A stretch of DNA of 33,061 nt from a virus, in IMG/VR virus record IMGVR_UViG_3300044821_000201; one strand, given 5' to 3'. Of this stretch, positions 11,193-29,239 are shown piece by piece. The notes under the pieces are model-generated. The model was not told where the DNA came from. It made no database searches and was given only the letters and a program-made list of their open reading frames with translations. The translations under genes and the position numbers were made by a program. Each line of letters starts with the position of its first letter. Position 1 is the first letter of the stretch.

Positions 11193-12917
11193 ATGCCAGA
11201 GGTCCCGGAGTCCGTTCCAAGCAAAGCCGTAACGGAGAAGACTGCCCCCATCCAATACATTCCGGGGCAGCACGTCAGAATCCGCTCTAGCGGGAAGACT
11301 GGCGATGCCTCTACCCCAGCGTACAGGGAGGGCATCCATGACTCGATCAAGAAGAGTTTGGTCGCGGGCCGTCAGCTGATCTCCCCTTATCTGGTTCTCC
11401 GCGTCATGATGTCCGACGGCTTCGACTTCGTCGTCGGGTCAGGGCCGAAAGGGATGATCGACGTCATGGATGAGGTGATCGCGGCCGCGCCGGAGTTCGA
11501 CCTGGAGCCGTTGTCCGTGAAGTTGTTCGGTACCACGGAGGTAATATATAAGCCCAGGGGGCTCCCCCTCGAGGACGCCCTGAAGAAGGAGTGTCCCGAC
11601 ATCTTCGACAGGATTCAGATAGTCGGACCAACCTCATACGTCATCCTGAACGACCTCGACTTCGCCCGTAAGAAGACCCTGGAGGCGAAGGTTGCGAAGA
11701 CGCAGGCAAACCTGCTGAAGGTCAGGTCTATGATGTCCATGGCGGACCGCATAGTCCCGCTCGTCCAGGATAAGGAGTATGTTACCCTCGTCGAGATCGC
11801 CGCCCAGCTCGCGGGGACCGACGATGAGAGGGCTGACCCGAACGGGAAGTTCCGGAAGCAGATAGCCGAGATCCTGAAGGAGCTCGAGTTCACCGCAGAC
11901 ACCATGGAGGTCGGCGGGAAGAGAACGAAGGTTTTCAGGGCCCCGTTCGCCGAGACGGGACAACCGCCGCTGCCGGCCGAGCCGGAGGAGACGACGGGAA
12001 TGAAAGAGCAGACCGAAGAGGATATTCAGGAGGAGACAATCCCTCTCTCGGAGACTCCGCAAAATCCGCAAGATATGGTCGAGGACGAGAGTGTCCCGTT
12101 GGACCGGAAGGAGCTGCCCGCGGACTGGAAAGTGAAGGTTCAGACTTTCCTGCAGGGTTCCTTGTCCCGGTCCTACATGTCGCTCGAGGAGCTTATCCTT
12201 AGGGCCGTGGGGAAGATCCCGCAGGAGCTCGGTGTGTCGAGCCGCATTCAGGTGTCGAAGTACATGTCTTCTCTCGGCCTGGACTCTACTGTGATCGACG
12301 AGAGAAAGGTATTCCATCCTGAGGGGAACGCTCCCTCCGAGGAGGAGCTGCGCTCCCATTTTTCCCAGTTGGATCGTGAAATCATGGAAGTCTTGGACAT
12401 CAAGGTGTCTGACGCTCCGCCGTGGATGAACGAGTCCCAGAGGGTGAACCTCTCGTACCTGGAGCATGCGTCACTTCTTCTGTGCGAGGAGGGGACCCAC
12501 ACGAGGTCCGGCCTCTTCCCGGGTCACCCGAGCGTCGACTGGCAGCGCAGGGCCATGGGCGTGTTCCAGTCTTACGGGCTCGTCTCCGTCCACGGGAGCG
12601 CCTTCTTTACCACGTACTCCGGGGTGCAGCCCGCCATCGAGCAGGCGCTGGACAGGGACTTTCTCCTCGGCATATTCTGGAAGCGAGAGACCATCCGGAA
12701 CGAGGAGGTCGAGGAAGAGAAGCCCGAGCCCGAGAAAGCCGAACCCGAGCCCGAGAAGGCCCTGTCCGAGGCTGCGAAGGATGACGGGGAGGAGACCGAT
12801 CTCATCAAGATGGTGCAAGACATGTTCGAAGCCTTGAAGAACCATGCCGAGGAGATACGCAAGTTGAAGAAGCGGGTGAAGCAGCTTGAGGGCGGAAAGG
12901 GTCTGACCGATGCTTGA
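11193..12917 (+). CDS. large hypothetical protein with acidic PE-rich linker and C-terminal coiled coil
   Basis: Long GC3-rich ORF. ORF track starts at 11049, but the first 48 aa are Arg/Pro junk, so ATG 11193 is preferred. Tandem EKPEPEKAEPEPEKA near the C-terminus. Confidence 0.5.
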   Translation: MPEVPESVPSKAVTEKTAPIQYIPGQHVRIRSSGKTGDASTPAYREGIHDSIKKSLVAGRQLISPYLVLRVMMSDGFDFVVGSGPKGMIDVMDEVIAAAPEFDLEPLSVKLFGTTEVIYKPRGLPLEDALKKECPDIFDRIQIVGPTSYVILNDLDFARKKTLEAKVAKTQANLLKVRSMMSMADRIVPLVQDKEYVTLVEIAAQLAGTDDERADPNGKFRKQIAEILKELEFTADTMEVGGKRTKVFRAPFAETGQPPLPAEPEETTGMKEQTEEDIQEETIPLSETPQNPQDMVEDESVPLDRKELPADWKVKVQTFLQGSLSRSYMSLEELILRAVGKIPQELGVSSRIQVSKYMSSLGLDSTVIDERKVFHPEGNAPSEEELRSHFSQLDREIMEVLDIKVSDAPPWMNESQRVNLSYLEHASLLLCEEGTHTRSGLFPGHPSVDWQRRAMGVFQSYGLVSVHGSAFFTTYSGVQPAIEQALDRDFLLGIFWKRETIRNEEVEEEKPEPEKAEPEPEKALSEAAKDDGEETDLIKMVQDMFEALKNHAEEIRKLKKRVKQLEGGKGLTDA

Positions 12918-13695
12918 CGCCGATTCCGCTGTTGAGGCGTGGGCCAAGGCGAAGACGCACCGGGAGAAGGCGGCCGCGGAGAAGTCTCTCCGGGACCATA
13001 TGAAGGTCAAGTCCCGAGATCTGACCGTCCTCCTGTCCGGAGCCTCGACCTATGAGCTCCAGGCGAGGAGCCAGTTCATCCTTTCCGGGTCCGAGTATAT
13101 TTGGTCCCTTCTTGACGACGAGGAGGTCCAGATATCGGTGGCCAGGAGGATCCTCGTGTCCGCCAGGACGATGTCAAAGTCCACCGGAAGAAATTTGGAC
13201 GACGTCCTCCGGGAGGTGTACCTCGACTCCCAGAGGGAGGCCGGCCCGAAGGCCGAGTCCATCTCTTCGAAGAAGTGGGAGCTCCTCCGGGAGACTGTGT
13301 CGTCCATCGTCTCGAGCGAACTTGACGGGCTGCACGATATTGAGCGCCGGGCAGCTCTGGACGAGGCCCTGATAGAGATCGACGTGCTCGTCCGTCAGCT
13401 CAAGGCGAAGATCCGCTCCCGGCTCAAGAAGGGCCTGCCCAAATCCTGGGAGGCTGTCTCCGAGAGGAACGAGCGCCGCGAGTTCTGTGCCGACATGCGG
13501 GAGCTCGGTATGGACCCGCCGAGGTCCGGGAGGCTCCCAAACATGGACGAGGTGAGAAGGACCCACCGGCGTGTGGCGGCGGACCATCATCCTGACCGGA
13601 GGAAGGATCAGGGGGCTAAAGACAAGTTTCAACGTGTAAACGAGGCCTACCAGCGTATACTAGCCTACGTAGGATCGAAGAAAGGAACCGAATGA
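12910..13695 (+). CDS. J-domain (DnaJ-like) protein with C-terminal J-domain
   Basis: C-terminus ...RRTHRRVAADHHPDRRKDQGAKDKFQRVNEAYQRILAY carries the HPD motif; ATG overlaps the upstream stop. Confidence 0.7.
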   Translation: MLDADSAVEAWAKAKTHREKAAAEKSLRDHMKVKSRDLTVLLSGASTYELQARSQFILSGSEYIWSLLDDEEVQISVARRILVSARTMSKSTGRNLDDVLREVYLDSQREAGPKAESISSKKWELLRETVSSIVSSELDGLHDIERRAALDEALIEIDVLVRQLKAKIRSRLKKGLPKSWEAVSERNERREFCADMRELGMDPPRSGRLPNMDEVRRTHRRVAADHHPDRRKDQGAKDKFQRVNEAYQRILAYVGSKKGTE

Positions 13696-16881: not shown

Positions 16882-16968
16882 GCGGCGTGAAAGCGGAGGT
16901 GGTCCTCCCACTCGGCTGTAAACCGAGCGCCCTCGGGCAAGAGGTTCGATTCCTTCCACGCCGCACCA
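16882..16968 (+). tRNA. tRNA-Tyr(GTA)
   Basis: 8-bp acceptor gcggcgtg/cacgccgc. Anticodon arm ctcgg-cuGUAaa-ccgag. Long variable arm. T-loop TTCGATT. ACCA 3' end encoded. D-arm atypical. Confidence 0.6.
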
Positions 16969-17020
16969 GATGTTTCACGAAGAAAGGAAGTACGGAAAGA
17001 AAACCGCGGCTCGCTGAAAG

Positions 17021-17093
17021 CGGGTCCGAGGTGTTGTGGCGGCATGCTGGGCTTTTACCCCACGCGGCGCGGGTTCGAACCCCGCCGGACTCA
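17021..17093 (+). tRNA. tRNA-Lys(TTT)-like
   Basis: Acceptor gggtccg/cggactc (one G-U). T-arm gcggg-TTCGAAC-cccgc. Anticodon loop cuUUUac on a 4-bp stem with C-C at 27:43. Weak D-stem gtgt/gcat. Confidence 0.4.
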
Positions 17094-17104
17094 TTCTCTC
17101 TTTC

Positions 17105-17175
17105 GCGCTTGTAGCTCATTGGTCGAGCCGACGGTTCTTACCCGTCAGGACGAGGTTCGATCCCTCGCAGGCGCA
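17105..17175 (+). tRNA. tRNA-Lys(CTT)
   Basis: Acceptor gcgcttg/caggcgc. D-arm TAGCTCATTGGTCGAGC. Anticodon arm gacgg-uuCUUac-ccgtc. T-loop TTCGATC. Confidence 0.65.
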
Positions 17176-17176
17176 C

Positions 17177-17250
17177 TCCGGGATCGTCTAACGGCAGGAC
17201 AACGAGCTCTGACCTCGTGAAAGTTGGTTCGAATCCAGCTCCCGGAACCA
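17177..17250 (+). tRNA. tRNA-Gln(CTG)
   Basis: Acceptor tccggga/tcccgga. D-stem gtc/gac. Anticodon arm acgag-cuCUGac-ctcgt. T-loop TTCGAAT. ACCA encoded. Begins 1 nt after the previous tRNA. Confidence 0.65.
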
Positions 17251-17370
17251 AGGCCCTCGATAGGGGGCCCTGACCTTTGACAACCTAAAAGCGGCGTGCC
17301 GGTGAGCAAAGCGTTCACGGAGGGCTCCCGCTCGTACGAGGGGGTGGCCACCAGCCGCCCCCGTTCTCAT

Positions 17371-17442
17371 TCCGTCCTAGCACAATGGCCGTGCGCTCGC
17401 CTGTTAAGCGAGATTATCCTGGTTCGAGTCCGGGGGACGGAG
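17371..17442 (+). tRNA. tRNA-Asn(GTT)
   Basis: Acceptor tccgtcc/ggacgga. D-stem gcac/gtgc. Anticodon arm ctcgc-cuGUUaa-gcgag. T-loop TTCGAGT. Confidence 0.65.
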
Positions 17443-17449
17443 CAAGAAA

Positions 17450-17517
17450 GCCGGCTCGGTCATGGGACCACCATCTTTTGTAATGATGTCAGGACGGTTC
17501 GATCCCGTCAGTCGGCT
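17450..17517 (+). tRNA. tRNA-Thr(TGT), compressed D-arm
   Basis: Acceptor gccggct/agtcggc. T-arm gacgg-TTCGATC-ccgtc. Anticodon loop uuUGUaa on catc/gatg stem with U-U at 31:39. 68 nt. Confidence 0.4.
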
Positions 17518-17560
17518 CCGTCCCCCGGCAGACGGGGCGAAAGACATAGTCTGCCTCCAG

Positions 17561-17632
17561 GGCCCATTCGACCACTGGCTAAGTCGGCGGTCTTTCCAAC
17601 CGCAGAACGGGGATCGATACCCCGATGGGTCA
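17561..17632 (+). tRNA. tRNA-Glu(TTC)
   Basis: Acceptor ggcccat/atgggtc. D-stem gac/gtc. Anticodon arm gcggt-cuUUCca-accgc. Unusual T-loop ATCGATA in cgggg/ccccg stem. Confidence 0.5.
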
Positions 17633-17674
17633 CCGCGCGGGCACAAGCCAACCGCTTTAAAAACTCGCACCGAC

Positions 17675-17747
17675 TAATCAATCTGTCTCGAAAGCTAACC
17701 TGGTGGAAGCATCCGGCTGAAAACCGGAGGGTGTCGGTTCGATCCCG
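17675..17747 (+). tRNA. tRNA-Phe(GAA)
   Basis: Acceptor gtctcga/tcgagac. Anticodon arm tccgg-cuGAAaa-ccgga. T-arm gtcgg-TTCGATC-ccgac. Confidence 0.7.
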
Positions 17748-18433
17748 ACTCGAGACACAGAGTATCTTGAGTGTCCTTTCAAGTGTTTTCTGACGGCGTT
17801 GTCGGAAACCCCGAGAAAAGTGCCTGCTCCCCTGAAACCGAGTTCGCGGACCATACTAACGAGGTGATCGCGGCTTGGCCATACCACTTTGAATTTTGTA
17901 CCGACTTTCGATATGTGATCACAGGCCACACACGACTTAGCACTTTTACTTATGGCCGCTCCGCATAGGCAGTGTTTTCTGATTTTCTTCTTTTTTCCGC
18001 GGGAATAGGTCGGTGTCTGAGAGTGACAATTTGGACATAACAGACGAAGATTTGACAGTAGGTAATTTCTCCTGTCGCCGTCCACATGGTCGAGTTGGAG
18101 GGTTATTTTCTGACCCATCCAATCAACTAACTTGCATTTACTGCATTCATTCGGCAAAATCCCGGCCTTCACCAGCCTATTTTTGATACTACTGCTCCCA
18201 TTCGAATCTTTACAGAGGAGTTCGGAAAGAGGTCTCGGCCGTGATAATGTCTGGACGTACGGCAATAGATGTGATGTATTCAGTCCGAGCCTTAATATGT
18301 GCCTATCCAGGCTTCGAAAATTTCCAGCGCCATGAGAACTCAAACCGAGTTTTCTTATTGTTTCGGCCTTAGAGAGACTCGTCGATAGAGCGATCCTTAA
18401 CTGATGGTCAGTCCATTTTCTTATGGGCATCAT
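17678..18433 (-). CDS. HNH homing endonuclease (N-terminal HNH, C-terminal Zn-finger/HTH-like DNA-binding region, I-HmuI-like layout)
   Basis: Motif DHVDGDRRNYLLSNLRLLCPNCHSQT. Low-GC island. The 3' end overlaps tRNA-Phe on the opposite strand; C-terminal ...RVGIEPTPSGF is the reverse-strand translation of the tRNA T-arm. Confidence 0.8.
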   Translation of the reverse strand: MMPIRKWTDHQLRIALSTSLSKAETIRKLGLSSHGAGNFRSLDRHILRLGLNTSHLLPYVQTLSRPRPLSELLCKDSNGSSSIKNRLVKAGILPNECSKCKLVDWMGQKITLQLDHVDGDRRNYLLSNLRLLCPNCHSQTPTYSRGKKKKIRKHCLCGAAISKSAKSCVACDHISKVGTKFKVVWPSRDHLVSMVRELGFRGAGTFLGVSDNAVRKHLKGHSRYSVSRVGIEPTPSGFQPDASTRLAFETD

Positions 18434-18464
18434 AGAACGTTACCGTTTCAACTGGTTCGACGTT

Positions 18465-18538
18465 CGGAGTGCGGGCTCAAGGCGGGCCGCCTGATTTGGG
18501 ATCAGGATATCAGGTGAGTTCGATTCTCACCACTCCGA
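18465..18538 (+). tRNA. tRNA-Pro(TGG)
   Basis: Acceptor cggagtg/cactccg. Anticodon arm cctga-uuUGGga-tcagg. T-arm gtgag-TTCGATT-ctcac. Confidence 0.55.
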
Positions 18539-18543
18539 CGAAC

Positions 18544-18615
18544 GGGTTCCTAGTGTAGTGGTCTGCACAGCTGATTGTGGCTCAGCTAGTCCGGGTCCGA
18601 TTCCCGGGGTTCCCT
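18544..18615 (+). tRNA. tRNA-His(GTG)-like, defective acceptor stem
   Basis: Anticodon arm gctga-uuGUGgc-tcagc. D-stem gtg/cac. T-arm ccggg-TCCGATT-cccgg. Acceptor gggttcc/ggttccc has tandem U-U mismatches and no G-1. Confidence 0.35.
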
Positions 18616-18619
18616 CAAC

Positions 18620-18689
18620 GCTCCCGCCGGCGGATCCGGTGGACCCTTTCCTAAAGGGACTTACGAAGGCTCGACCCCTTCCGGGAGCG
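18620..18689 (+). tRNA. tRNA-Arg(CCT)
   Basis: Acceptor gctcccg/cgggagc shared with other Arg tRNAs. Anticodon loop uuCCUaa on a 4-bp stem. Atypical T-loop CTCGACC (stem gaagg/ccttc). 70 nt. Confidence 0.45.
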
Positions 18690-18761
18690 CAAAAGACGGC
18701 TGGATCTTCCTAACGGGTCGCACCCGGAGGTGCCGGTGGACCGGCAAACAAATCAGCCCAT

Positions 18762-18833
18762 GCCTCGTGAGCCAGCAAGTGTGGGCACCCGCCTGTCGAG
18801 CGGAGGAGAGGGGAGCGTTACCCCTACGGGGCG
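18762..18833 (+). tRNA. tRNA-Asp(GTC) with noncanonical T-loop AGCGTTA
   Basis: Acceptor gcctcgt/acggggc. Anticodon loop cuGUCga. T-arm agggg-AGCGTTA-cccct. Confidence 0.45.
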
Positions 18834-18837
18834 CTAT

Positions 18838-18909
18838 AGGTCTGAGGCTTAGGTAGCCGGCGAGACTCCAAATCTCGCGACGACGTGGTTCGATTCCACG
18901 CAGACCTGC
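18838..18909 (+). tRNA. tRNA-Trp(CCA)
   Basis: Acceptor aggtctg/cagacct. Anticodon arm cgaga-cuCCAaa-tctcg. T-arm cgtgg-TTCGATT-ccacg. Confidence 0.6.
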
Positions 18910-18923
18910 AGGAAGAGCATAAC

Positions 18924-18994
18924 GGGGATGGACGCGGAAGGCCGCTGGCTTCTCCTGCAAAGAAGCCGTCAGGGAGCGTTACCCTGCATCTCCA
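18924..18994 (+). tRNA. tRNA-Ala(TGC)-like with noncanonical T-loop AGCGTTA
   Basis: Acceptor ggggatg/catctcc with G3-U70. Anticodon arm cttct-ccUGCaa-agaag. T-arm caggg-AGCGTTA-ccctg. Confidence 0.45.
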
Positions 18995-19000
18995 CGAAAC

Positions 19001-19071
19001 GCCGTCTCAGCACGATGGTCGTGCTCTCCCCTGGTATGGGAGCGGATCGGGTTCGACTCCCGAAGGCGGCT
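19001..19071 (+). tRNA. tRNA-Thr(GGT)
   Basis: Acceptor gccgtct/aggcggc. D-arm gcac-gatggtc-gtgc. Anticodon arm ctccc-cuGGUau-gggag. T-arm tcggg-TTCGACT-cccga. Confidence 0.65.
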
Positions 19072-19122
19072 CCGGCGGTCCCGAAAGCCTCGCTCCGGCG
19101 ACGGCGAGTAGGGACGGCCAAT

Positions 19123-19193
19123 GCGACCTTGGCCGAATGGTTAGGCCTCTGCCTTCCAAGCAGAAGAAGCGGGTTCGATTCCCGCAGGTCGCT
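19123..19193 (+). tRNA. tRNA-Gly(TCC)
   Basis: Acceptor gcgacct/aggtcgc. Anticodon arm tctgc-cuUCCaa-gcaga. T-arm gcggg-TTCGATT-cccgc. Confidence 0.65.
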
Positions 19194-19205
19194 CTCCGCC
19201 ATGAG

Positions 19206-19278
19206 CGCGGGCAAGGCCGACTGGTGAGGCGGAAATCTGCCAAGTTTTCACAGGAGGGTCCGATCCCCTCTGCCCGCT
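19206..19278 (+). tRNA. tRNA-Gly(GCC)
   Basis: Acceptor gcgggca/tgcccgc. Anticodon arm gaaat-cuGCCaa-gtttt. T-arm gaggg-TCCGATC-ccctc. Confidence 0.55.
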
Positions 19279-19285
19279 CCGAGAC

Positions 19286-19357
19286 GACGCGCAGCACTGG
19301 CCCGTGCTGAGAGGTCTGCAAAACCGCTACGGCCCGGTCCGATTCCGGGGCGCGTCT
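19286..19357 (+). tRNA. tRNA-Cys(GCA)
   Basis: Acceptor gacgcgc/gcgcgtc. D-stem gcac/gtgc. Anticodon arm gaggt-cuGCAaa-accgc. T-arm cccgg-TCCGATT-ccggg. Confidence 0.55.
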
Positions 19358-19364
19358 CCGACAT

Positions 19365-19432
19365 GCTCCCGCCGTTGGACGGCGATGGGTCTTCTAAGCC
19401 CGCTCGGCCAGGTTCGAATCCTGGCGGGAGCG
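19365..19432 (+). tRNA. tRNA-Arg(TCT), reduced D-arm
   Basis: Acceptor gctcccg/cgggagc. Anticodon arm tgggt-cuUCUaa-gcccg. T-arm ccagg-TTCGAAT-cctgg. 68 nt. Confidence 0.45.
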
Positions 19433-19443
19433 CGACACGACAC

Positions 19444-19515
19444 GCCCCGTTCGACTACTGGCTAGGTCGGGACCCTCTCAAGGTCCAGGAACCGGATCGA
19501 TACCGGTACGGGGTG
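19444..19515 (+). tRNA. tRNA-Glu(CTC)
   Basis: Acceptor gccccgt/acggggt. D-stem gac/gtc. Anticodon arm ggacc-cuCUCaa-ggtcc. T-loop ATCGATA (as in tRNA-Glu(TTC)). Confidence 0.55.
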
Positions 19516-19533
19516 CCGCACTGCACGAGAAAC

Positions 19534-19604
19534 GTCCCCGCCTAGGGATTTAGGCATTGACGCTACGAACGTCGACTGCGCAGGCTCGACTCCTGCCGGG
19601 GACT
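19534..19604 (+). tRNA. tRNA-Arg(ACG)
   Basis: Acceptor gtccccg/cggggac. Anticodon arm tgacg-cuACGaa-cgtcg. T-arm gcagg-CTCGACT-cctgc. D-stem ccta/tagg abuts the acceptor stem. Confidence 0.5.
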
Positions 19605-19615
19605 CCGACACACAA

Positions 19616-19684
19616 GCTCTCGCCGGCGGATCCGGCCCTGCCCCTCCGAAGGGCGGACATGCTGTTCGACTCAGCACGGGAGCG
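19616..19684 (+). tRNA. tRNA-Arg(CCG)
   Basis: Acceptor gctctcg/cgggagc. Anticodon arm tgccc-cuCCGaa-gggcg. T-arm tgctg-TTCGACT-cagca. 69 nt. Confidence 0.5.
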
Positions 19685-19685
19685 C

Positions 19686-19759
19686 TGCGGGCGAGTGAAA
19701 CGGTTTACACACTGGGCTCATAACCCACGTAACAGCTGGTTCGACTCCAGTGCCCGCTA
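19686..19759 (+). tRNA. tRNA-Met(CAT), initiator-like
   Basis: Anticodon arm tggg-cuCAUaa-ccca with three consecutive G-C pairs (initiator hallmark). Acceptor tgcgggc/gcccgct with 1:72 mismatch. T-arm gctgg-TTCGACT-ccagt. Confidence 0.5.
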
Positions 19760-19760
19760 C

Positions 19761-19829
19761 GGTGGCAACGCAAGGCGCGACGCGGCTCTCATAAGGCCGG
19801 CGGCTGTGGTTCAAGTCCACGTGCCACCA
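19761..19829 (+). tRNA. tRNA-Met or Ile2 (CAT), elongator type
   Basis: Acceptor ggtggca/tgccacc. Anticodon arm cggct-cuCAUaa-ggccg. T-arm tgtgg-TTCAAGT-ccacg. Short D-arm. 69 nt. Confidence 0.5.
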
Positions 19830-19830
19830 C

Positions 19831-19902
19831 TCCAGGGTGGTGTAGCGGAAGCATGCAGGCCTTTGAAGCCTTGCGACCCGCGTTCGAATCGCGGACCTGG
19901 AA
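19831..19902 (+). tRNA. tRNA-Gln(TTG)
   Basis: Acceptor tccaggg/acctgga (G-A at 7:66). D-stem gtgt/gcat. Anticodon loop cuUUGaa. T-arm ccgcg-TTCGAAT-cgcgg. Confidence 0.5.
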
Positions 19903-19906
19903 CTAT

Positions 19907-19978
19907 CGGAGACAACGCTCAGGGTGGGCGGCGCCGTTCGGGGCGGTGTGTTGGCGGGTTCGATCCCCGCGTCTCCGA
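19907..19978 (+). tRNA. tRNA-Pro(CGG)
   Basis: Acceptor cggagac/gtctccg. Anticodon arm cgccg-uuCGGgg-cggtg. T-arm gcggg-TTCGATC-cccgc. Confidence 0.6.
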
Positions 19979-19984
19979 CGACTC

Positions 19985-20058
19985 GCTGGACGAGAGCAGC
20001 AAGAGAAGCCGGCGGTCTTACAAGCCGCAGTCGCCCGGAGCGTTACCGGGGTCCAGCA
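19985..20058 (+). tRNA. tRNA-Val(TAC) with noncanonical T-loop AGCGTTA
   Basis: Acceptor gctggac/gtccagc. Anticodon arm gcggt-cuUACaa-gccgc. T-arm cccgg-AGCGTTA-ccggg. Weak D-arm. Confidence 0.45.
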
Positions 20059-20062
20059 CGAC

Positions 20063-20144
20063 GTCCGCTTGGTGGAATTGGCATACACAGCCGACTTAAA
20101 ACCGGCCGCCCTCGGGCATCCCGGATCGTTGCCGGGAGCGGACA
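20063..20144 (+). tRNA. tRNA-Leu(TAA)
   Basis: Acceptor gtccgct/agcggac. Anticodon loop cuUAAaa (A-C at 31:39). Long variable arm cgccctcgggcat. T-arm cccgg-ATCGTTG-ccggg. Confidence 0.5.
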
Positions 20145-20148
20145 CCGA

Positions 20149-20220
20149 CTGCCTCAACGCTCTGGTTGAGCTGCGGGGGCTTATATCTCTTGCGGGCCGG
20201 TCCGATTCCGGCGGGGCGGA
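20149..20220 (+). tRNA. tRNA-Ile(TAT)-like, probably degenerate
   Basis: Acceptor ctgcctc/ggggcgg (two G-U). D-stem gctc/gagc. T-arm gccgg-TCCGATT-ccggc. Anticodon arm ggggg-cuUAUau-ctctt is G-U rich. Confidence 0.3.
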
Positions 20221-20233
20221 CGGAGAGACTTAC

Positions 20234-20305
20234 GGAGCTGGACGGTCTGGTTGACCTTTGTCGCCTGATAAGCGACCCGGCCGTGTTCGAATCACGGCAG
20301 CTCCA
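20234..20305 (+). tRNA. tRNA-Ile(GAT)
   Basis: Acceptor ggagctg/cagctcc. D-stem ggtc/gacc. Anticodon arm gtcgc-cuGAUaa-gcgac. T-arm ccgtg-TTCGAAT-cacgg. Confidence 0.6.
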
Positions 20306-20309
20306 CTAC

Positions 20310-20385
20310 GCAGGATGAGCCAGCAAGCGAAGGCGCCAGCTCGACAAGCTGGAATAGCTGGGAGCGTTACCCAGATCCTGTACCA
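20310..20385 (+). tRNA. tRNA-Val(GAC) with noncanonical T-loop AGCGTTA
   Basis: Acceptor gcaggat/atcctgt. Anticodon arm ccagc-ucGACaa-gctgg (C33). T-arm ctggg-AGCGTTA-cccag. ACCA encoded. Confidence 0.45.
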
Positions 20386-20386
20386 T

Positions 20387-20469
20387 GCGCTCGTGGCGTA
20401 ATAGAAGCCGCGCTACGTTCAGACCGTAGTGGTCGCGAGACCGTCAAGGTGCAAGTCCTTGCGAGCGCA
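20387..20469 (+). tRNA. tRNA-Leu(CAG)
   Basis: Acceptor gcgctcg/cgagcgc. Anticodon arm ctacg-uuCAGac-cgtag. Long variable arm tggtcgcgagaccgt. T-arm caagg-TGCAAGT-ccttg. Confidence 0.55.
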
Positions 20470-20478
20470 CGAACATAT

Positions 20479-20561
20479 CCCGACGTGGAGGAAAAGCAGA
20501 CTCGACATCCTGAGAAGGTGTTGGCCGCAAGGCCGTGCACGTGCAATTCGTGTCGTCGGGA
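20479..20561 (+). tRNA. tRNA-Leu(GAG)
   Basis: Acceptor cccgacg/cgtcggg. Anticodon arm acatc-cuGAGaa-ggtgt. Long variable arm tggccgcaaggccgt. T-arm gcacg-TGCAATT-cgtgt. Confidence 0.55.
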
Positions 20562-20565
20562 CTAT

Positions 20566-20654
20566 GCACATATGGCGAAATGCAAACGCATCTGATTCAA
20601 AACCAGACGGGGGTTAAACCCCCCTTGCCGGTTCAATCCCGGCTATGTGCACCA
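20566..20654 (+). tRNA. tRNA-Leu(CAA)
   Basis: Acceptor gcacata/tatgtgc. D-stem gcg/cgc. Anticodon loop uuCAAaa (A-C at 31:39). Variable arm with ggggg/ccccc stem. T-arm gccgg-TTCAATC-ccggc. ACCA encoded. Confidence 0.6.
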
Positions 20655-20828
20655 TGTTTCATCCAATAGCCCGGAGGTGGTGTTTCTATCCCCCTTGATT
20701 TACATCGCTTCTTTACCCCTGAAGAACTGACTCCTAAATTTTTCGCTATGGTTGTGGTCGGTTCTTTGAACAACATCAGTTGTAAGACCTCATCGGTCGG
20801 CCATGAAGTTTGTTTAAGGACCCTGAAT

Positions 20829-21347
20829 ATGTCTCACACGAGGACCCTTCTTCTCTCCCCCTGGTACGTCCCGATCAAGGTCCTGCGGTGGCAGGACGCA
20901 GTGAAGATGCGCTATGAGGGCACGGCCGAGGTGGTCGTGGAGTACGACGACGAGATCTCGTCCCCGTCAGTGACGTGGAGAATGCCGGCGGTCATGCGGC
21001 TGCGCAGGATGCCGAGCTCGCAGAAGCGCGGCGTGAAGTTCTCGCGCCTCAACGTGTACCAGAGGGACGGACATAGGTGCCAGTACTGCGGCGAGCGGTT
21101 CCCCCTCTCTTCCCTGTCCTACGACCACGTCGTACCCCGGGCCGCCGGCGGCCGGACGGACTGGACGAACATCGTCACCGCCTGCAAGCCGTGCAACACG
21201 AGGAAGGCGGACAAGAGCTGTGACGACTCGGGGATGTTCCCCCTCCGGCCGCCGGTGAGGCCGAGGTCGCTCCCGATGTCGGGGCCGGCCATCGATCCCG
21301 CCAGCGCCCCCGAGGAGTGGCTCGGGTTCGTCCGCGACCTGGTTTAG
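20829..21347 (+). CDS. HNH endonuclease
   Basis: Motif CQYCGERFPLSSLSYDHVVPRAAGGRTDWTNIVTACKPCNTRKAD. ATG at 20829 preferred over the ORF-track start at 20748. Low-GC leader. Confidence 0.8.
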   Translation: MSHTRTLLLSPWYVPIKVLRWQDAVKMRYEGTAEVVVEYDDEISSPSVTWRMPAVMRLRRMPSSQKRGVKFSRLNVYQRDGHRCQYCGERFPLSSLSYDHVVPRAAGGRTDWTNIVTACKPCNTRKADKSCDDSGMFPLRPPVRPRSLPMSGPAIDPASAPEEWLGFVRDLV

Positions 21348-21444
21348 AGCTACGCACGGAAGATGGACCGGCCAGGGGTCGGCGTCGCTTGGAAAGCGAA
21401 TGGAACCCGTAAGGGTTTGGGTTTCGAGTACCTCGTCTTCCGCA

Positions 21445-21523
21445 GAGGGTCTGGGCATGGCGCCAAACGGACCTTGAAAGTCCGCACATCTTATGATGAG
21501 CGTTCGATTCGCTGACCCTCTGC
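21445..21523 (+). tRNA. tRNA-Ser(TGA)
   Basis: Acceptor agagggt/accctct. Anticodon arm cggac-cuUGAaa-gtccg. Variable arm with catc/gatg stem. T-arm gagcg-TTCGATT-cgctg. Confidence 0.55.
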
Positions 21524-21540
21524 CGATGTCCCCATTCCCG

Positions 21541-21621
21541 GAAGGTGAATCCGCAGGGCGCGGAGCCCGGCTCGAAACCGGTGCGCACTTCACGGTGTGG
21601 CCTTCGATTGGTCCGCCTTCC
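21541..21621 (+). tRNA. tRNA-Ser(CGA)-like
   Basis: Acceptor gaaggtg/cgccttc. D-stem tccg/cgga. Anticodon loop cuCGAaa. ~15-nt variable arm. T-loop TTCGATT in a 4-bp stem (register irregular). Confidence 0.4.
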
Positions 21622-21630
21622 TCAACGACT

Positions 21631-21712
21631 GGAAACTGATTCCCCTGTGGAGGGGAGCGTGTTTGCTAAACACTGCGCGCGAAAGCGTGACGTTCGACTC
21701 GTCCTGTTTCCG
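21631..21712 (+). tRNA. tRNA-Ser(GCT)
   Basis: Acceptor ggaaact/tgtttcc (6 bp). D-stem cccc/gggg. Anticodon arm gtgt-uuGCUaa-acac. Variable arm cgc-GAAA-gcg. T-arm tgacg-TTCGACT-cgtcc. Confidence 0.5.
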
Positions 21713-21717
21713 CCTTC

Positions 21718-21785
21718 GCCGCCGTCTCTCGGAGAGCGTGCCCTTTCGTAATGGGTCCGGTCCGGTTCGACTCCGGACGGCGGCT
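21718..21785 (+). tRNA. tRNA-Thr(CGT), reduced D-arm
   Basis: Acceptor gccgccg/cggcggc. Anticodon loop uuCGUaa on a 4-bp stem. T-arm tccgg-TTCGACT-ccgga. 68 nt. Confidence 0.4.
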
Positions 21786-25787: not shown

Positions 25788-25861
25788 CCGCCGATAGCTC
25801 AGTGGTAACGAGCAGGGTTCTTATAAAGCTCAGGTCGATGGTTCAATTCCATCTCGGCGGA
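25788..25861 (+). tRNA. tRNA-Ile(TAT)
   Basis: Acceptor ccgccga/tcggcgg. Canonical D-arm TAGCTCAGTGGTAACGAGC. Anticodon arm gggtt-cuUAUaa-agctc. T-arm gatgg-TTCAATT-ccatc. Confidence 0.65.
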
Positions 25862-26684
25862 CAGTGTTAAGGAAGTGTGAGAATTCACGCTCCACAAAAG
25901 CCGGATCAGCTCTTCCGGGATCGTCGATTACATACGATTCATACCCGTATGTCTTAATCTCCTTCATCTTAATCCTGTCACGGTTCTGTACCTGAAGAAC
26001 GGAGTGCTTTGACTTTATCTTTCTCCGGTGCCATGGTCCGTTCCATAAGATGGCCATCTTCAGATCATGAATGATGACGTCCGCGTCCCACCCGTTGAAG
26101 ATCGGGGCGTTGGTCTGGACGTTGTCGAAATGTGCTAAGCACATATCTGCGAACAAGATTTTATTCCTCGAACGAGAGACACTTTGCATTCGCCCGATTC
26201 TTGAGAAAATTTCCTTCTTGCACGGGACACAGAACTTTCTTGAAGAATTTCTTTTGGTCTCGAAAGCAGTCCCGCACCGGCATGTTCGTTGAACAATCTC
26301 GTTCTGCCTTGCTTTCTTACAAGCGTCACATTTGACGGCCGGGGAAAACTTTGAATGTTTAGACGCTTTCCCGCATGTTATGCACCCGATATCTTTCGTC
26401 CCGCTTTTGTCCTTGGACTTGTTGGTGTGAGAGACTGAACAGTTAAGAGAACAGAAATCGTTTCTTCCTTCCTCCATCTCGGAGACATGCTTCATGAAGG
26501 TTATTCCACATTTGAAGCAGAGTATCATTATTTTGGTTACAGCGTCGTTCCCCCTGCAGGCATTACTGCAGAAGTACCTTTCGGAACGTCCTTGTTTTAC
26601 TGCATAGTCTATCTCGGCCTTTCTTCGGACAAACGAGCGCGTGCAGAAAGAACAGGTCAGACTGACGACAGTATTCATGTTCAA
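25830..26684 (-). CDS. Zn-finger-repeat (C-x2-C...FCSxxC x4-5) endonuclease-like protein, probable homing endonuclease
   Basis: Low-GC island. Repeated CxxC...FCSxxC modules shared with the HNH protein at 27313. The 3' end overlaps tRNA-Ile(TAT); C-terminal ...RRDGIEPST is the reverse translation of the tRNA T-arm. Confidence 0.55.
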   Translation of the reverse strand: MNMNTVVSLTCSFCTRSFVRRKAEIDYAVKQGRSERYFCSNACRGNDAVTKIMILCFKCGITFMKHVSEMEEGRNDFCSLNCSVSHTNKSKDKSGTKDIGCITCGKASKHSKFSPAVKCDACKKARQNEIVQRTCRCGTAFETKRNSSRKFCVPCKKEIFSRIGRMQSVSRSRNKILFADMCLAHFDNVQTNAPIFNGWDADVIIHDLKMAILWNGPWHRRKIKSKHSVLQVQNRDRIKMKEIKTYGYESYVIDDPGRADPAFVEREFSHFLNTVRRDGIEPST

Positions 26685-26743
26685 ATAGATGATAGAAAGT
26701 TCAAATCGGAATCAGCTCACTGTAATATGAAGGAGGAGAACAT

Positions 26744-27037
26744 ATGAACAAGACTCAACTGGTGCAGGCGATCGTGGAGATAACGAGCCTCTCGAAGGCG
26801 CAGACGGCCGACACGCTGGACGCGCTCGCCATCGTGGCCGAGAAGTCCCTAAAATCGGACGGGGAGTTCGCCGTCCCGGGGGTCGCGCGCCTGAAGGTGA
26901 AGGACGTCCCGGCCAAGCCGGAGCGCGTCGGCCTCAACCCGTTCACCAAGCTCCAGCAGACCTTTCCGGCCAAGCCGGCGTCGAAGGGCGTCAAGGCCTT
27001 CCCGGCCGCCTCCCTGAAGAAGTCGCTGTCGGAGTGA
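26744..27037 (+). CDS. HU/IHF-family DNA-binding protein
   Basis: MNKTQLVQAIVE... and GLNPFT (compare HU GRNPQT). 97 aa. Strong SD GGAGGAG 7 nt upstream. Confidence 0.85.
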   Translation: MNKTQLVQAIVEITSLSKAQTADTLDALAIVAEKSLKSDGEFAVPGVARLKVKDVPAKPERVGLNPFTKLQQTFPAKPASKGVKAFPAASLKKSLSE

Positions 27038-27213
27038 AGACGGTGAACCTGCACCTCGACGGCGGGAACTACGGCCGAGAGGAGCTCTTCCGTCTCGTGG
27101 AAGGCCGCGAGCACGCCCTGATCTCCGGGTGCGCGCACTGCGGCCGCCCGCTCGGCAGGGTCGGCGACGTGTCGACGCCGGCTGCGTCCCGTGCATTGCG
27201 CGGGACGTCATGA
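27034..27213 (+). CDS. possible small Cys/His protein (59 aa)
   Basis: GTGA overlap with HU stop; below the 60-aa cutoff of the ORF track; weak. Confidence 0.25.
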   Translation: MKTVNLHLDGGNYGREELFRLVEGREHALISGCAHCGRPLGRVGDVSTPAASRALRGTS

Positions 27214-27222
27214 ACAGATAAC

Positions 27223-27294
27223 GGGCTCGTCGTCCAATCGGGAGGACCGCGCTTTCGCAAAGCGCAAACGGAGGTTCGAATCCTCCCGAGTCCA
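27223..27294 (+). tRNA. tRNA-Ala(CGC)
   Basis: Acceptor gggctcg/cgagtcc with G3-U70. D-stem gtcc/ggac. Anticodon arm gcgct-uuCGCaa-agcgc. T-arm ggagg-TTCGAAT-cctcc. Confidence 0.7.
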
Positions 27295-27312
27295 CACTGG
27301 TAGAATACGGGA

Positions 27313-27930
27313 ATGGAGCAATTCCTTCTTCCACCCACCACGTCTACCAGCTACGACGGCCGACAAAGGAAGGTATTCCCGAAACCGTGTGAGCAATGTC
27401 AGACTGTGTTCTGGGCTCCGAAGCATGTGCTCGGAAAGCGTCGACATTGCTCGCTCCAATGCTTCCGCGACTCCAGGAAGAAGAGGGTCAAACTCGTTTG
27501 CGCCTTTTGCGAAACGAGTTTCGAGAGGGTCCTCAACAAAGCGGATAGCCCGAAAGGCGAACACAGGTTCTGCAGTCGCTTCTGCAAAGACAAGGCGCAG
27601 ACAACAGAAGTCGGCTTGATAACGTACCTACACTACAAAGACGGCGTCGCCAACTACAGGGAGAGGGCGCTCCGCATCCACGGGAAAATATGTAAGAGAT
27701 GCGGATACGACGAAGACGAGAGGATGCTCGACGCCCACCATGTGAACGGGGACAGAACGGACCCGAGTCCTGAGAACCTCCGGGTACTTTGCGTCTGGTG
27801 TCACGCCCTGAAGACCAGAGGTGTGGAGGAGCACGAACGGGTTCCTAGTTCAATCGGGAGAACGGCGGTCCTGCAAACCGCAGACGGAGGGTTCGACTCC
27901 CCCGGGATCCACGAAGAGACGGGGTCTTAG
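27313..27930 (+). CDS. HNH endonuclease with N-terminal CxxC...HCSxxC Zn-finger repeats
   Basis: Motif CKRCGYDEDERMLDAHHVNGDRTDPSPENLRVLCVWCHALKT. The 3' end reads through tRNA-Ala(TGC) on the same strand. Confidence 0.8.
   Translation: MEQFLLPPTTSTSYDGRQRKVFPKPCEQCQTVFWAPKHVLGKRRHCSLQCFRDSRKKRVKLVCAFCETSFERVLNKADSPKGEHRFCSRFCKDKAQTTEVGLITYLHYKDGVANYRERALRIHGKICKRCGYDEDERMLDAHHVNGDRTDPSPENLRVLCVWCHALKTRGVEEHERVPSSIGRTAVLQTADGGFDSPGIHEETGS
27839..27911 (+). tRNA. tRNA-Ala(TGC)
   Basis: Acceptor gggttcc/gggatcc with G3-U70. D-arm TAGTTCAATCGGGAGAAC. Anticodon arm gcggt-ccUGCaa-accgc. T-arm gaggg-TTCGACT-ccccc. Confidence 0.6.
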
Positions 27931-27997
27931 CTCATTTGGGTAGAGCGCTTCGCTGGCAGCGAAGAGGCGGCGGGTTCGACTCCCGCAGACTCCACCA
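27921..27997 (+). tRNA. tRNA-Ala(GGC)
   Basis: Acceptor ggggtct/agactcc with G3-U70. D-arm TAGCTCATTTGGGTAGAGC. Anticodon arm cttcg-cuGGCag-cgaag. T-arm gcggg-TTCGACT-cccgc. ACCA encoded. Confidence 0.7.
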
Positions 27998-28051
27998 TGA
28001 AACCAAAGAGAACTCGTACTTCACGGGGCTAATTACAGCGTAAGCTCGTCC

Positions 28052-28453
28052 ATGGACGAGGAGCGAGAGGAGTGCGAGAGGCGCTGGTGGTTCATGTCGT
28101 ACCACGGGGTCCCGGACGGCGGGTCGCCCCTCCCGTGTCTCCCGTCCGCCCCGGGCGCCGTTCCGGATCGGGCCAGGCTCCGGCACTTCCGCGAGCACGG
28201 GAAGGACGAGCACCACGACCCGGCCCGCGCCATGGCCCCGTACGCCCTCATCCTCCAGATGATGATCGAGGACCTGGGCTCCTCGGACCTCCGGTCCGCC
28301 AGGGTGTCCTTCGGGGACGCGCTCGTGGCGGCCTGCTCGAGGCTCAACATCGACCACGTGGCGCTCCCCAAGGACATCCAGGGCGTGCTCCTCCGGAGCG
28401 CCTTCACCATGATAACGAGCGGCGGCATTCCGGGCGCCCCGGAGGCCGGATGA
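28052..28453 (+). CDS. hypothetical protein
   Basis: Protein-like composition; the overlapping frame 28072-28533 is Arg/Pro junk. Confidence 0.45.
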   Translation: MDEEREECERRWWFMSYHGVPDGGSPLPCLPSAPGAVPDRARLRHFREHGKDEHHDPARAMAPYALILQMMIEDLGSSDLRSARVSFGDALVAACSRLNIDHVALPKDIQGVLLRSAFTMITSGGIPGAPEAG

Positions 28454-28456
28454 CAC

Positions 28457-28527
28457 GCCGGCTTAGCACTGGGGAGTGTTCCCGTTTTGTACTCGGGACC
28501 AAGCGGGTTCGACTCCCGTGGCCGGCT
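28457..28527 (+). tRNA. tRNA-Thr(TGT), second copy
   Basis: Acceptor gccggct/ggccggc. D-stem gcac/gtgt. Anticodon loop uuUGUac with U-U at 31:39. T-arm gcggg-TTCGACT-cccgt. Confidence 0.45.
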
Positions 28528-28529
28528 CC

Positions 28530-28838
28530 GTGACGACCTACGACTACGTCTTCAGGGCCGCGGCCGGCATGTACATCGCCCTCTGGGTCATCCGCCTGGC
28601 CAGGGCCGGAGTCCGTCCTTACGTGGCCGTCCCCATAATCGCGGCCATGACCTGGAGCCTGTTCTCCCGGGCCCAGGGCTCAAACTACGTCTTCATAGCC
28701 TGCATGCTCGCCGCCCACGTCTCCATGAGGGGAGGCGGCCGCGGGGGAGGGCTCGGCAAGAAGCTCGCCGCGAGGTGGGACTCCCTGACAGACGTCGTCC
28801 GTTCATCGTTCGGCCGCGACGCCGCGGCCTCATCGTAG
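28530..28838 (+). CDS. small integral membrane protein (3 predicted TM helices)
   Basis: GTG at 28530 just after the tRNA. Hydrophobic segments MYIALWVIRLA, YVAVPIIAAMTWSLF, YVFIACMLAAHV. Confidence 0.4.
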   Translation: MTTYDYVFRAAAGMYIALWVIRLARAGVRPYVAVPIIAAMTWSLFSRAQGSNYVFIACMLAAHVSMRGGGRGGGLGKKLAARWDSLTDVVRSSFGRDAAASS

Positions 28839-28843
28839 ATTAC

Positions 28844-28914
28844 GCCCCCATAGCTCAGTGGTAGAGCTCCGGCATGGTAAGCCGAAGACCCGGGTCCGAT
28901 TCCCGGTGTGGGCT
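28844..28914 (+). tRNA. tRNA-Thr(GGT), second copy
   Basis: Acceptor gccccca/tgtgggc (one mismatch). D-arm TAGCTCAGTGGTAGAGC. Anticodon loop auGGUaa. T-arm ccggg-TCCGATT-cccgg. Confidence 0.5.
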
Positions 28915-28923
28915 CCGTTGTGT

Positions 28924-28994
28924 GCGGGATTGACGTATTGGCTGCGTCTCAGCCTTCCAAGCTGATGAAGCCGGTTCGATTCCGGCATTCCGCT
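28924..28994 (+). tRNA. tRNA-Gly(TCC), second copy
   Basis: Acceptor gcgggat/attccgc. Anticodon arm tcagc-cuUCCaa-gctga. T-arm gccgg-TTCGATT-ccggc. Confidence 0.6.
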
Positions 28995-29001
28995 CTCGTT
29001 C

Positions 29002-29073
29002 GCGACGTTAGTCTAGAGGTCAGGCACTTCCTTGCCAAGGAAGATCACGCGAGTTCGAATCTCGCACGTCGCT
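29002..29073 (+). tRNA. tRNA-Gly(GCC), second copy
   Basis: Acceptor gcgacgt/acgtcgc. Anticodon arm cttcc-uuGCCaa-ggaag. T-arm gcgag-TTCGAAT-ctcgc. Fits canonical numbering. Confidence 0.7.
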
Positions 29074-29090
29074 CCGTACATTCTCCGCGC

Positions 29091-29164
29091 GCGGGTGTAG
29101 CTCAGTGGCAGAGCAGACGGTTCCCATCCTTCAGACAGGGTTTCGATTACCCTCACCCGCTCCA
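29091..29164 (+). tRNA. tRNA-Gly(CCC)
   Basis: Acceptor gcgggtg/cacccgc. D-arm TAGCTCAGTGGCAGAGC. Anticodon loop uuCCCau. T-arm agggt-TTCGATT-accct. CCA encoded. Confidence 0.65.
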
Positions 29165-29165
29165 T

Positions 29166-29236
29166 GTCGACGTGTCCGAATGGCTAGGTGCGGGATTGCA
29201 ACCCCCGTCATGCGGGTTCGATTCCTGCCGTCGACT
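29166..29236 (+). tRNA. tRNA-Cys(GCA), second copy
   Basis: Acceptor gtcgacg/cgtcgac. Anticodon arm cggga-uuGCAac-ccccg. T-arm gcggg-TTCGATT-cctgc. The alternative reading as Ala(TGC) is rejected because there is no G3-U70. Confidence 0.5.
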
Positions 29237-29239
29237 CCG

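Follow-up and report, generated by a model that had tools for sequence, protein, structure and literature searches.

In bacterial-type elongator transfer RNAs (tRNAs), U54, U55 and A58 of the T-loop are regarded as nearly universal. According to one recent paper, all elongator tRNAs carry 5-methyluridine at position 54 (m5U54) and pseudouridine at position 55 (10.1101/2023.11.11.566336), and the flat outer face of the G19:C56 pair is described as a stacking surface for RNase P, the ribosome and other partners (PMC4810234, PMC3664808). The T-loop motif of tRNAs follows UUCRA, with G18 as the intercalating base, whereas T-loops outside tRNA have the consensus YGNRA (UGNRA 88.7%, CGNRA 10.9%), almost always take up an adenosine between positions 4 and 5, place two bulged bases after the motif and include, in ribosomal RNA (rRNA), a GGAAG variant (10.1101/2022.12.26.521914). 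Here we describe four loci, denoted t1 to t4, in a stretch of viral DNA of 33,061 nucleotides (nt) (IMG/VR record IMGVR_UViG_3300044821_000201; the whole stretch is referred to below as the window). Judging from sequence analysis, these loci probably are functional elongator tRNA genes that belong to a distinct class, with different but internally consistent elbow nucleotides.

The four loci are recognizable by an 11-mer, GGAGCGTTACC, which is present in the window in exactly four copies, all on the plus strand (starting at 18812, 18973, 20037 and 20361). With at most one mismatch allowed, there are five matches in the window compared to a mean of 0.57 in dinucleotide shuffles, and none of the 100 shuffles reached five. 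Each copy is centred in a hairpin of 5 base pairs (bp) with the loop AGCGTTA that occupies the T-arm position of a cloverleaf, and the four stems differ (agggg/cccct, caggg/ccctg, cccgg/ccggg and ctggg/cccag). An earlier reading of this DNA, made from the letters alone (hereafter the sequence-only reading), had reported this four-fold motif and exactly these co-varying stems; the positions it gave, 18809, 18970, 20034 and 20358, mark where the 5-bp stems begin. GC-rich 5-bp hairpins with one and the same loop, found four times within 1.6 kilobases (kb), could be taken for terminators or other repeat units between tRNA genes. However, there is no T-run 3' of the hairpin at any of the four loci, nor any terminator-like site there, and each hairpin lies inside a complete cloverleaf, the other three arms of which co-vary as well. 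Because the loci share only a 13-nt core and parts of the D-arm, and nothing longer, a larger repeat of which they would be the units does not exist either, and we regard such an origin of the hairpins as next to impossible.

The minimum-free-energy fold of each of the four regions, folded alone, is a cloverleaf, and a custom cloverleaf scanner yielded identical parses, in agreement with the assignments proposed in the sequence-only reading (Asp-GTC, Ala-TGC-like with G3:U70, Val-TAC and Val-GAC, each with the hairpin as the T-arm) and with its acceptor and anticodon pairings. All four genes are on the plus strand. The gene t1 (18762..18833) is a tRNA-Asp with the anticodon GTC at 18795-18797 and the discriminator G73; it consists of acceptor strands at 18762-18768 and 18826-18832, the linker G8 A9, a D-arm at 18771-18786 (GCC-AGCAAGTGTG-GGC) and a T-arm at 18809-18825. 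The tRNA-Ala t2 (18924..18994; anticodon TGC at 18956-18958, G3:U70, A73, T-arm at 18970-18986) has a compact core, with a 3-nt linker, a D-arm that is a 4-bp hairpin with an AAGG loop (GCGG-AAGG-CCGC), an anticodon stem of 8 bp and a variable region of a single nucleotide. The two remaining genes are tRNA-Val, namely, t3 (19985..20058; anticodon TAC at 20019-20021, A73, T-arm at 20034-20050), in which the D-arm contains a one-base bulge (G-a-GC-AGCAAGAGAA-GCC), and t4 (20310..20385; anticodon GAC at 20343-20345, D-arm GCC-AGCAAGCGAA-GGC, T-arm at 20358-20374), in which A73 at 20382 is followed by an encoded CCA at 20383-20385.

The base 5' of the anticodon, U33, is nearly universal in tRNAs. 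It is found in t1 and t3, and is replaced by C33 in t2 (anticodon loop at 18954-18960) and t4 (20341-20347). The window also contains C33 in an Ala-TGC gene at 27839-27911, and this base recurs in unrelated arrays, in the Val-GAC gene of L136 and the Ile-GAT genes of L006, L077, L131 and L133; the C33 anticodon loops read CCTGCAA, TCGACAA and CCGATAA. The presence of C33 may have to do with the alterations of the anticodon loop that enable phage tRNAs to evade nucleases.

Compared to the standard set of tertiary bases, U8, A14, G18 G19, T54 Psi55 C56 and A58, the four loci retain only G19 and C56, and contain G8, A18 G19 and A54 G55 C56 G57 U58 instead. The sequence-only reading had stated that the loop lacked the entire T54-Psi55-C56/A58 signature; indeed, T54, U55 and A58 are missing, but C56 is kept, as is the closing pair G53:C61, and with C56 retained, the G19:C56 corner pair survives. 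The D-arm is non-canonical as well. In t1, t3 and t4, it has the common form G8 A9, then nnn-AGCAAGnGnn-nnn; in these three genes and their relatives, which we denote class A, the G8 A9 linker leads into three Watson-Crick pairs, followed by A.A, G.A or G.U, and a C:G pair that closes a four-base A-A-G-N loop. The T-loop of the four loci and their relatives reads N54-G55-C56-G57-N58-U59-A60.

The class-A design is represented in approximately 100 viral contigs. In a loose scan of IMG/VR for AGCAAG followed by GGAGCGTTACC at 30-55 nt, the spacing among the matches listed showed a sharp peak at a total length of 49-51 nt, and the peak-spacing matches among those listed are cloverleaf tRNAs within phage tRNA arrays. 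A strict pattern of fixed length retrieved 53 stretches from IMG/VR, and a sister flavour with the T-loop GGCGGTA (G54:G58) gave 24 further matches. A Val-TAC copy is present, unannotated, in six records of isolated Synechococcus phages, S-N03 (two entries), MA10, MA01, ME01 and MC09; the S-N03 gene is at MT162466.1:100779-100851. When applied to 185,579 species genomes, this strict pattern matched only 17 contigs, in every case within a tRNA cluster. Ten of these are tRNA-Cys genes of Verrucomicrobiota, including one from the isolate Verrucomicrobia bacterium LW23 that adjoins purL on a contig of 551 kb and thus has a chromosomal setting; three are from metagenome-assembled genomes (MAGs) of Polyangiaceae (L136, L137 and L145), with syntenic arrays that resemble the one in the window and carry an orthologue of t4 (Val-GAC). 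The AGCGTTA T-loops that the sequence-only reading had suggested looking for in other huge-phage genomes occur in IMG/VR, in Synechococcus phages and in bacteria. Altogether, class A spans at least 10 amino-acid specificities, and the GC content of the relatives' loci ranges from 34% to 70%.

Each of the other three loci has counterparts elsewhere, too. An Asp-GTC gene with G73, matching t1, is found in an unrelated metagenome tRNA array (L204); class-A Val-TAC genes, the counterparts of t3, are present in Synechococcus phage S-N03 as well as in numerous viral contigs; and the t2 type, with a 4-bp D stem, an AAGG loop, AGCGTTA, G3:U70 and A73, recurs in L133, L198 and L200, with co-varying D stems. 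The closest relatives of t4 are class-A Val genes of other genomes rather than t1, which points to old lineages, each specific for one amino acid, and counters the possibility that t1-t4 arose by recent internal duplication. A BLAST match in Acinetobacter phage DLP3 (loop ATCGTTA) was left uncounted because it has no convincing acceptor stem.

Some related tRNAs depart from the class-A pattern. In the Verrucomicrobiota chromosomal tRNA clusters L135 (LW23, QAZA01000056.1) and L147 (a Methylacidiphilales MAG), the Cys, His and Gly-GCC genes all combine G55 with A18; the Cys genes are class A, the His T-loops read TGCAAAT or TGCGAAT, and Gly-GCC has the T-loop AGCGTAA and a D-loop with TAG. This suggests that the alternative elbow is common among cellular tRNAs of Verrucomicrobiota. 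A gene in L025 (2227-2317; anticodon GAT) combines the class-A D-arm and the AGCGTTA T-loop with a 19-nt variable arm, so that the class-A architecture is not confined to tRNAs with short variable loops.

The class-A cloverleaf is strongly supported by co-variation. Across an alignment of 32 class-A sequences, 97.8% of the cells are paired, compared to 58% after shuffling; two-sided changes occur in 20 of the 23 pairs, and sliding the partners by 1-3 columns reduces the pairing to 31-41%. RNAalifold independently produced the cloverleaf together with the pair that closes the D-arm tetraloop. The identity elements are equally regular, with the discriminator fitting the anticodon in all 42 unique class-A genes: Asn genes have G73 (7/7), His C73 (4/4), Val A73 (12/12) and Cys U73 (14/14), Ile, Pro and Glu genes have A, and Asp genes have G. 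In the Ala type, G3:U70 and A73 are always present. The CCA is encoded in half of the 42 genes.

These observations bear on the possibility that the four loci are tRNA pseudogenes in decay, or products of recent internal duplication, with a mutated T-loop in common by chance. In favour of decay, ARAGORN and the Rfam tRNA model both reject t1-t4, the D stem of t3 is bulged and the core of t2 is odd. We nevertheless consider this explanation very improbable, given that the identical loop is combined with co-varying stems in many unrelated phages and bacteria, that the fit between discriminators and anticodons has no exceptions, that t4 is closer to foreign Val genes than to t1, and that the loops co-vary with each other as detailed below. 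The divergence of the stems also excludes a single, recently spread mobile sequence as the source of the relatives. Compensatory changes are seen in every stem as well as in the contacts that link the D-loop to the T-loop, so that the verdict of the sequence-only reading, selection rather than decay, stands.

The class is almost invisible to the two tRNA detectors that were run. ARAGORN detected 37 tRNAs and a transfer-messenger RNA (tmRNA) in the window and none of t1-t4; among the relatives, it picked up a single one of the 17 copies in species genomes, and of the viral copies that were checked it reported none. The Rfam model RF00005 gave no match to t1-t4 at E<=1 over the array and none at E<=10 on inputs of 246 or 413 bases. 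In contrast, a class-A covariance model that we built from the 32-sequence alignment (R1) assigned 83.2 bits to t4, 73.9 to t1, 72.7 to t3, which was outside the training set, and 33.7 to t2, the best canonical tRNA of the window scoring 31 bits; the alignment of t3 to this model displays the D-stem bulge. Such scoring had been proposed in the sequence-only reading. For t2, the tRNA-like piece of a tmRNA was considered and rejected: only its T-arm and acceptor gave a partial match of 12-13 bits, the anticodon arm of t2 is complete, and there is already a standard tmRNA in the window (4688-5054).

The elbow itself is, by all indications from sequence co-variation, rewired rather than broken, the D-arm changing together with the T-loop. 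The first base of the tetraloop and T-loop base 59 (17:59) form A:U in 26 and U:A in 6 of the 32 aligned sequences, without a single mismatch. In a targeted scan for bases other than A at position 17, six tRNA loci were found, all with U17, five of them with A59 and one with U59; the reverse scan, for A17 with a base other than U at 59, gave no match. The pair was also assessed in bystander tRNAs, that is, tRNAs not selected on the bases compared, where 17:59 is Watson-Crick in 24 of 38 with A54:U58, as against 114 of 352 canonical ones. In 430 bystander tRNAs, the 18:55 combination is G:U in 340, A:G in 61, G:G in 6 and A:U in 2, and each of the six G:G cases also admits a reading as AG then G. 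The G19:C56 pair is invariant. Where position 54 is not A, it is G, and position 58 is then G in 22 of 25 matches.

A further contact might involve the variable loop. The tetraloop-closing pair and the last variable-loop base appear as CG/G in 63 cases, UA/A in 2 and GC/C in 1, a co-variation that rests on only three independent changes and resembles the canonical 13:22:46 triple. A swapped 15:48 Levitt pair, between position 3 of the D-loop (C) and the last variable base, was tried and partly set aside: RNAalifold and the wider set suggest instead that D-loop position 3 pairs with position 8, closing the tetraloop, with the variable-loop base as the third partner; both readings draw on the same small number of independent changes, three. 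A scan for class-A genes with a base other than C at D-loop position 3 yielded no match and is uninformative.

The loop sequence can be accommodated by a known fold. As A-G-C-G-U followed by U-A, it fits the five-nucleotide T-loop motif, with G at position 2, G at position 4 and two bases after the motif; positions 1 and 5 are A...U here and G...G in the sister genes, the published pair usually being Y.A. The co-variation of A18 with G55 is the very difference that has been described between tRNA and non-tRNA T-loops, so that the non-tRNA flavour appears to be used. The view of the sequence-only reading that these RNAs need an unusual tertiary fold or form a distinct tRNA-like family is supported by the cloverleaves, the co-variation and the distinct class, with the refinement that the fold is probably not exotic.

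These RNAs might instead be aminoacylatable tRNA-like molecules that operate outside ribosomal translation, as non-ribosomal aminoacyl donors or nuclease decoys. In favour of this reading, the non-proteinogenic tRNA-Gly of Staphylococcus aureus lacks G18 G19 as well as U55 C56 (PMC4574755), phage tRNAs have a known role against tRNA nucleases (PMC10264068, PMC12445682), and the C33 of t2 and t4 is not usually found in tRNAs that decode. The genomic evidence points the other way. A combination of ARAGORN, the custom scanner and direct reading identified at least 49 tRNA genes in the window, which together serve all 20 amino acids, and in this otherwise complete set, t1, t3 and t4 are the only tRNAs for Asp and Val. 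More generally, a class-A gene hardly ever duplicates the anticodon of a canonical one, a canonical tRNA with that anticodon being present at the same locus for only 2 of 63 unique class-A genes, and the chromosomal class-A tRNA-Cys of Verrucomicrobiota looks like a housekeeping gene. Furthermore, G19:C56 is retained, unlike in the staphylococcal species, and the T stems, as read from the sequences, have no common pattern of weak EF-Tu binding. A role outside translation thus seems quite unlikely to us, although less so than decay.

Several points weigh against the interpretation of t1-t4 as functional elongator tRNAs with an alternative elbow. The A54.U58 closing pair is outside the published T-loop consensus; C33 in t2 and t4, the bulge in the D stem of t3, and the 8-bp anticodon stem, 1-nt variable region and low class-A score of t2 (33.7 bits) are all irregular. 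The tertiary contacts are deduced from co-variation among sequences that were in part retrieved by patterns fixing some of the loop bases, and the unbiased support for 17:59 from the bystander tRNAs is weaker than that from the alignment. Finally, the elbow of the t1-t4 type occurs in just 4 of the approximately 49 tRNAs of the window, so that any advantage it may bring is not a general one. With these reservations, functional elongator tRNAs of a distinct class remain, in our assessment, the probable identity of the four loci.

If so, the T-loop would fold as the five-nucleotide motif in the flavour of riboswitches and rRNA, in which position 2 is G and an adenine intercalates, and through this fold the ordinary L-shape and the flat outer face of G19:C56 would be preserved, the extra 17:59 pair adding stability. 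The RNAs would presumably be excised from the transcript of the array, acquire CCA if the gene does not supply it, be charged by host synthetases that recognize the ordinary identity elements, and function in decoding on the ribosome. Class-A tRNAs could have neither m5U54 nor pseudouridine 55. It is plausible, as a speculation, that the benefit consists in folding independently of TrmA and TruB, or in an elbow that escapes the notice of host factors reading the canonical one; the papers on phage tRNAs and defence deal only with changes of the anticodon arm (PMC10264068, PMC12445682, PMC13056530). The stronger proposal, that a D-arm tetraloop docked in a T-loop of the riboswitch and rRNA type is a second stable elbow design, deployed by phages for independence from TrmA and TruB or for evasion of host factors or defence nucleases, strikes us as doubtful.

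The four genes are embedded in the first of two tRNA arrays of the window (16882..21785, plus strand; the second extends over 25788-29238) and, as is usual in this array, are separated from the adjacent genes by 4-6 nt. Eight additional tRNAs that ARAGORN missed or miscalled were identified with the custom scanner and by direct reading: Tyr-GTA (16882-16964), Arg-CCT (18620-18689), Arg-TCT (~19365-19433, called by ARAGORN as Pro at 19341-19433), Arg-ACG (~19534-19604), Ser-GGA (21359-21441), Ser-CGA (21540-21622), Thr-CGT (21718-21785) and, in the second array, Thr-TGT (28457-28527). Several of these have odd D-arms or C54 T-loops (CTCGACC, CTCGACT). Milder elbow variants are seen in other genes of the first array. 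Leu-CAG (20387-20469) and Leu-GAG (20479-20561) have the T-loops TGCAAGT and TGCAATT and AG in the D-loop, that is, A18:G55, while T54 and A58 are normal; the T-loop of the two Glu genes (17561-17632 and 19444-19515) is ATCGATA (A54...A58); and Leu-TAA (20063-20144) has ATCGTTG (A54:U58 with U55). In the second array, the block at 28844-29238 repeats the order of 19001-19357, Thr-GGT, Gly-TCC, Gly-GCC, (Gly-CCC), Cys-GCA, with diverged sequences, and is a duplicate of that block.

Genes for HNH endonucleases, which are common in phage tRNA regions, are inserted inside the first array at 17678-18433 (minus strand) and 20748-21347 (plus strand). The tmRNA gene at 4688-5054 (plus strand), near the tRNA arrays, is of the standard type according to ARAGORN and encodes the tag peptide ANDNNTVHALAA. 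Upstream of the first array, on the plus strand, are genes for an RRM-domain protein (5703-6128; E 2e-21), an HD-domain protein of 418 amino acids (7029-8285) and a DnaJ-domain protein (12910-13695). The HD-domain protein could be a divergent tRNA nucleotidyltransferase, although no polymerase domain was detected in it; apart from this protein, the Pfam search of the neighbouring open reading frames (ORFs) gave nothing related to tRNA. An ORF at 363-2990 (plus strand; 875 amino acids) matches the shoulder domain of the major vault protein (E 6e-24) and vault repeats, which is unusual for a phage-like element. No structural phage gene was found within the window, most of the ORFs are without a match, a PHROGs search returned only one match, of unknown function, and a megablast search of the array against 50,697 phage records gave no match. 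The content of the window is in keeping with a large phage or a mobile element of a similar kind, and origin from a huge phage is plausible.

A conserved class of tRNAs with A54 G55 U58 and a compensating D-arm would mean that the elbow can be built in another way, counter to the textbook rule of near-universal T-loop bases. Such tRNAs would make it possible to examine, on natural molecules, which features of the elbow are required by TrmA, TruB, RNase P, the CCA-adding enzyme, EF-Tu and the ribosome, and an alternative elbow that is self-contained could serve as a scaffold for engineered or orthogonal tRNAs. There is also a practical consequence. Because these genes are missed by ARAGORN, by the Rfam tRNA model and in the GenBank records checked, among them the six phage records with an unannotated class-A gene, the tRNA repertoires of phages are under-counted: the window would wrongly seem to lack Asp and Val tRNAs by standard detection, and isolated cyanophages carry a tRNA-Val that is not annotated.

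We found no published description of this class in the open-access literature, where absence is no proof of novelty; a 2020 review of natural non-canonical tRNAs mentions neither the class nor phage tRNAs (PMC7609411). Among the described systems, canonical tRNA (RF00005) shares with class A the 7-bp acceptor, the 5-bp T stem, the 5-bp anticodon stem with a 7-nt loop, the short variable loop, G53:C61, G19:C56, the discriminators, G3:U70 and the location in tRNA arrays. Class A differs in G8 for U8, A18 for G18, A or G at 54, G55 and U or G at 58, as well as in the long D hairpin with a 4-nt loop and the extra Watson-Crick pair between the tetraloop and base 59. Class A agrees with the T-loops of riboswitches, RNase P and rRNA in that position 2 is G, position 4 is a purine, two bulged bases follow and the partner loop supplies an adenine, and the GGAAG loop of rRNA is resembled by the GGCGG flavour; unlike these instances of the general motif, the class-A loop is part of a tRNA T-arm and would dock the tetraloop of a D-arm.

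The closest analogy for the D-arm is tRNA-Sec, which similarly has a long D stem of six layers and a four-base D-loop, the first base of which contacts base 59 (16:59), along with G19:C56 (PMC7609411). However, tRNA-Sec has an 8/5 or 9/4 acceptor/T arrangement, a long variable arm, a UCA anticodon and a canonical T-loop, whereas class A has the 7/5 arrangement, short variable loops, sense anticodons for many amino acids and two purine-purine layers in the D stem; t1-t4, with their 7/5 arrangement, variable regions of 1-5 nt and sense anticodons, are not tRNA-Sec. The t2 type alone recalls tRNA-Pyl and the mitochondrial tRNA-Ser(UCN), which also have a small D-loop, a longer anticodon stem and a tiny variable region and lack G18 G19 or T-Psi-C (PMC7609411), but t2 differs from both in its Ala identity, the AGCGUUA T-loop, the AAGG D-loop and the length of the linker. 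The S. aureus tRNA-Gly species are, like class A, bacterial tRNAs without the canonical elbow bases (PMC4574755); they contain U18U19 or C18U19, have lost the 19:56 pair and function in cell-wall synthesis, whereas class A keeps G19:C56, shows compensating changes and fills decoding slots that would otherwise be empty.

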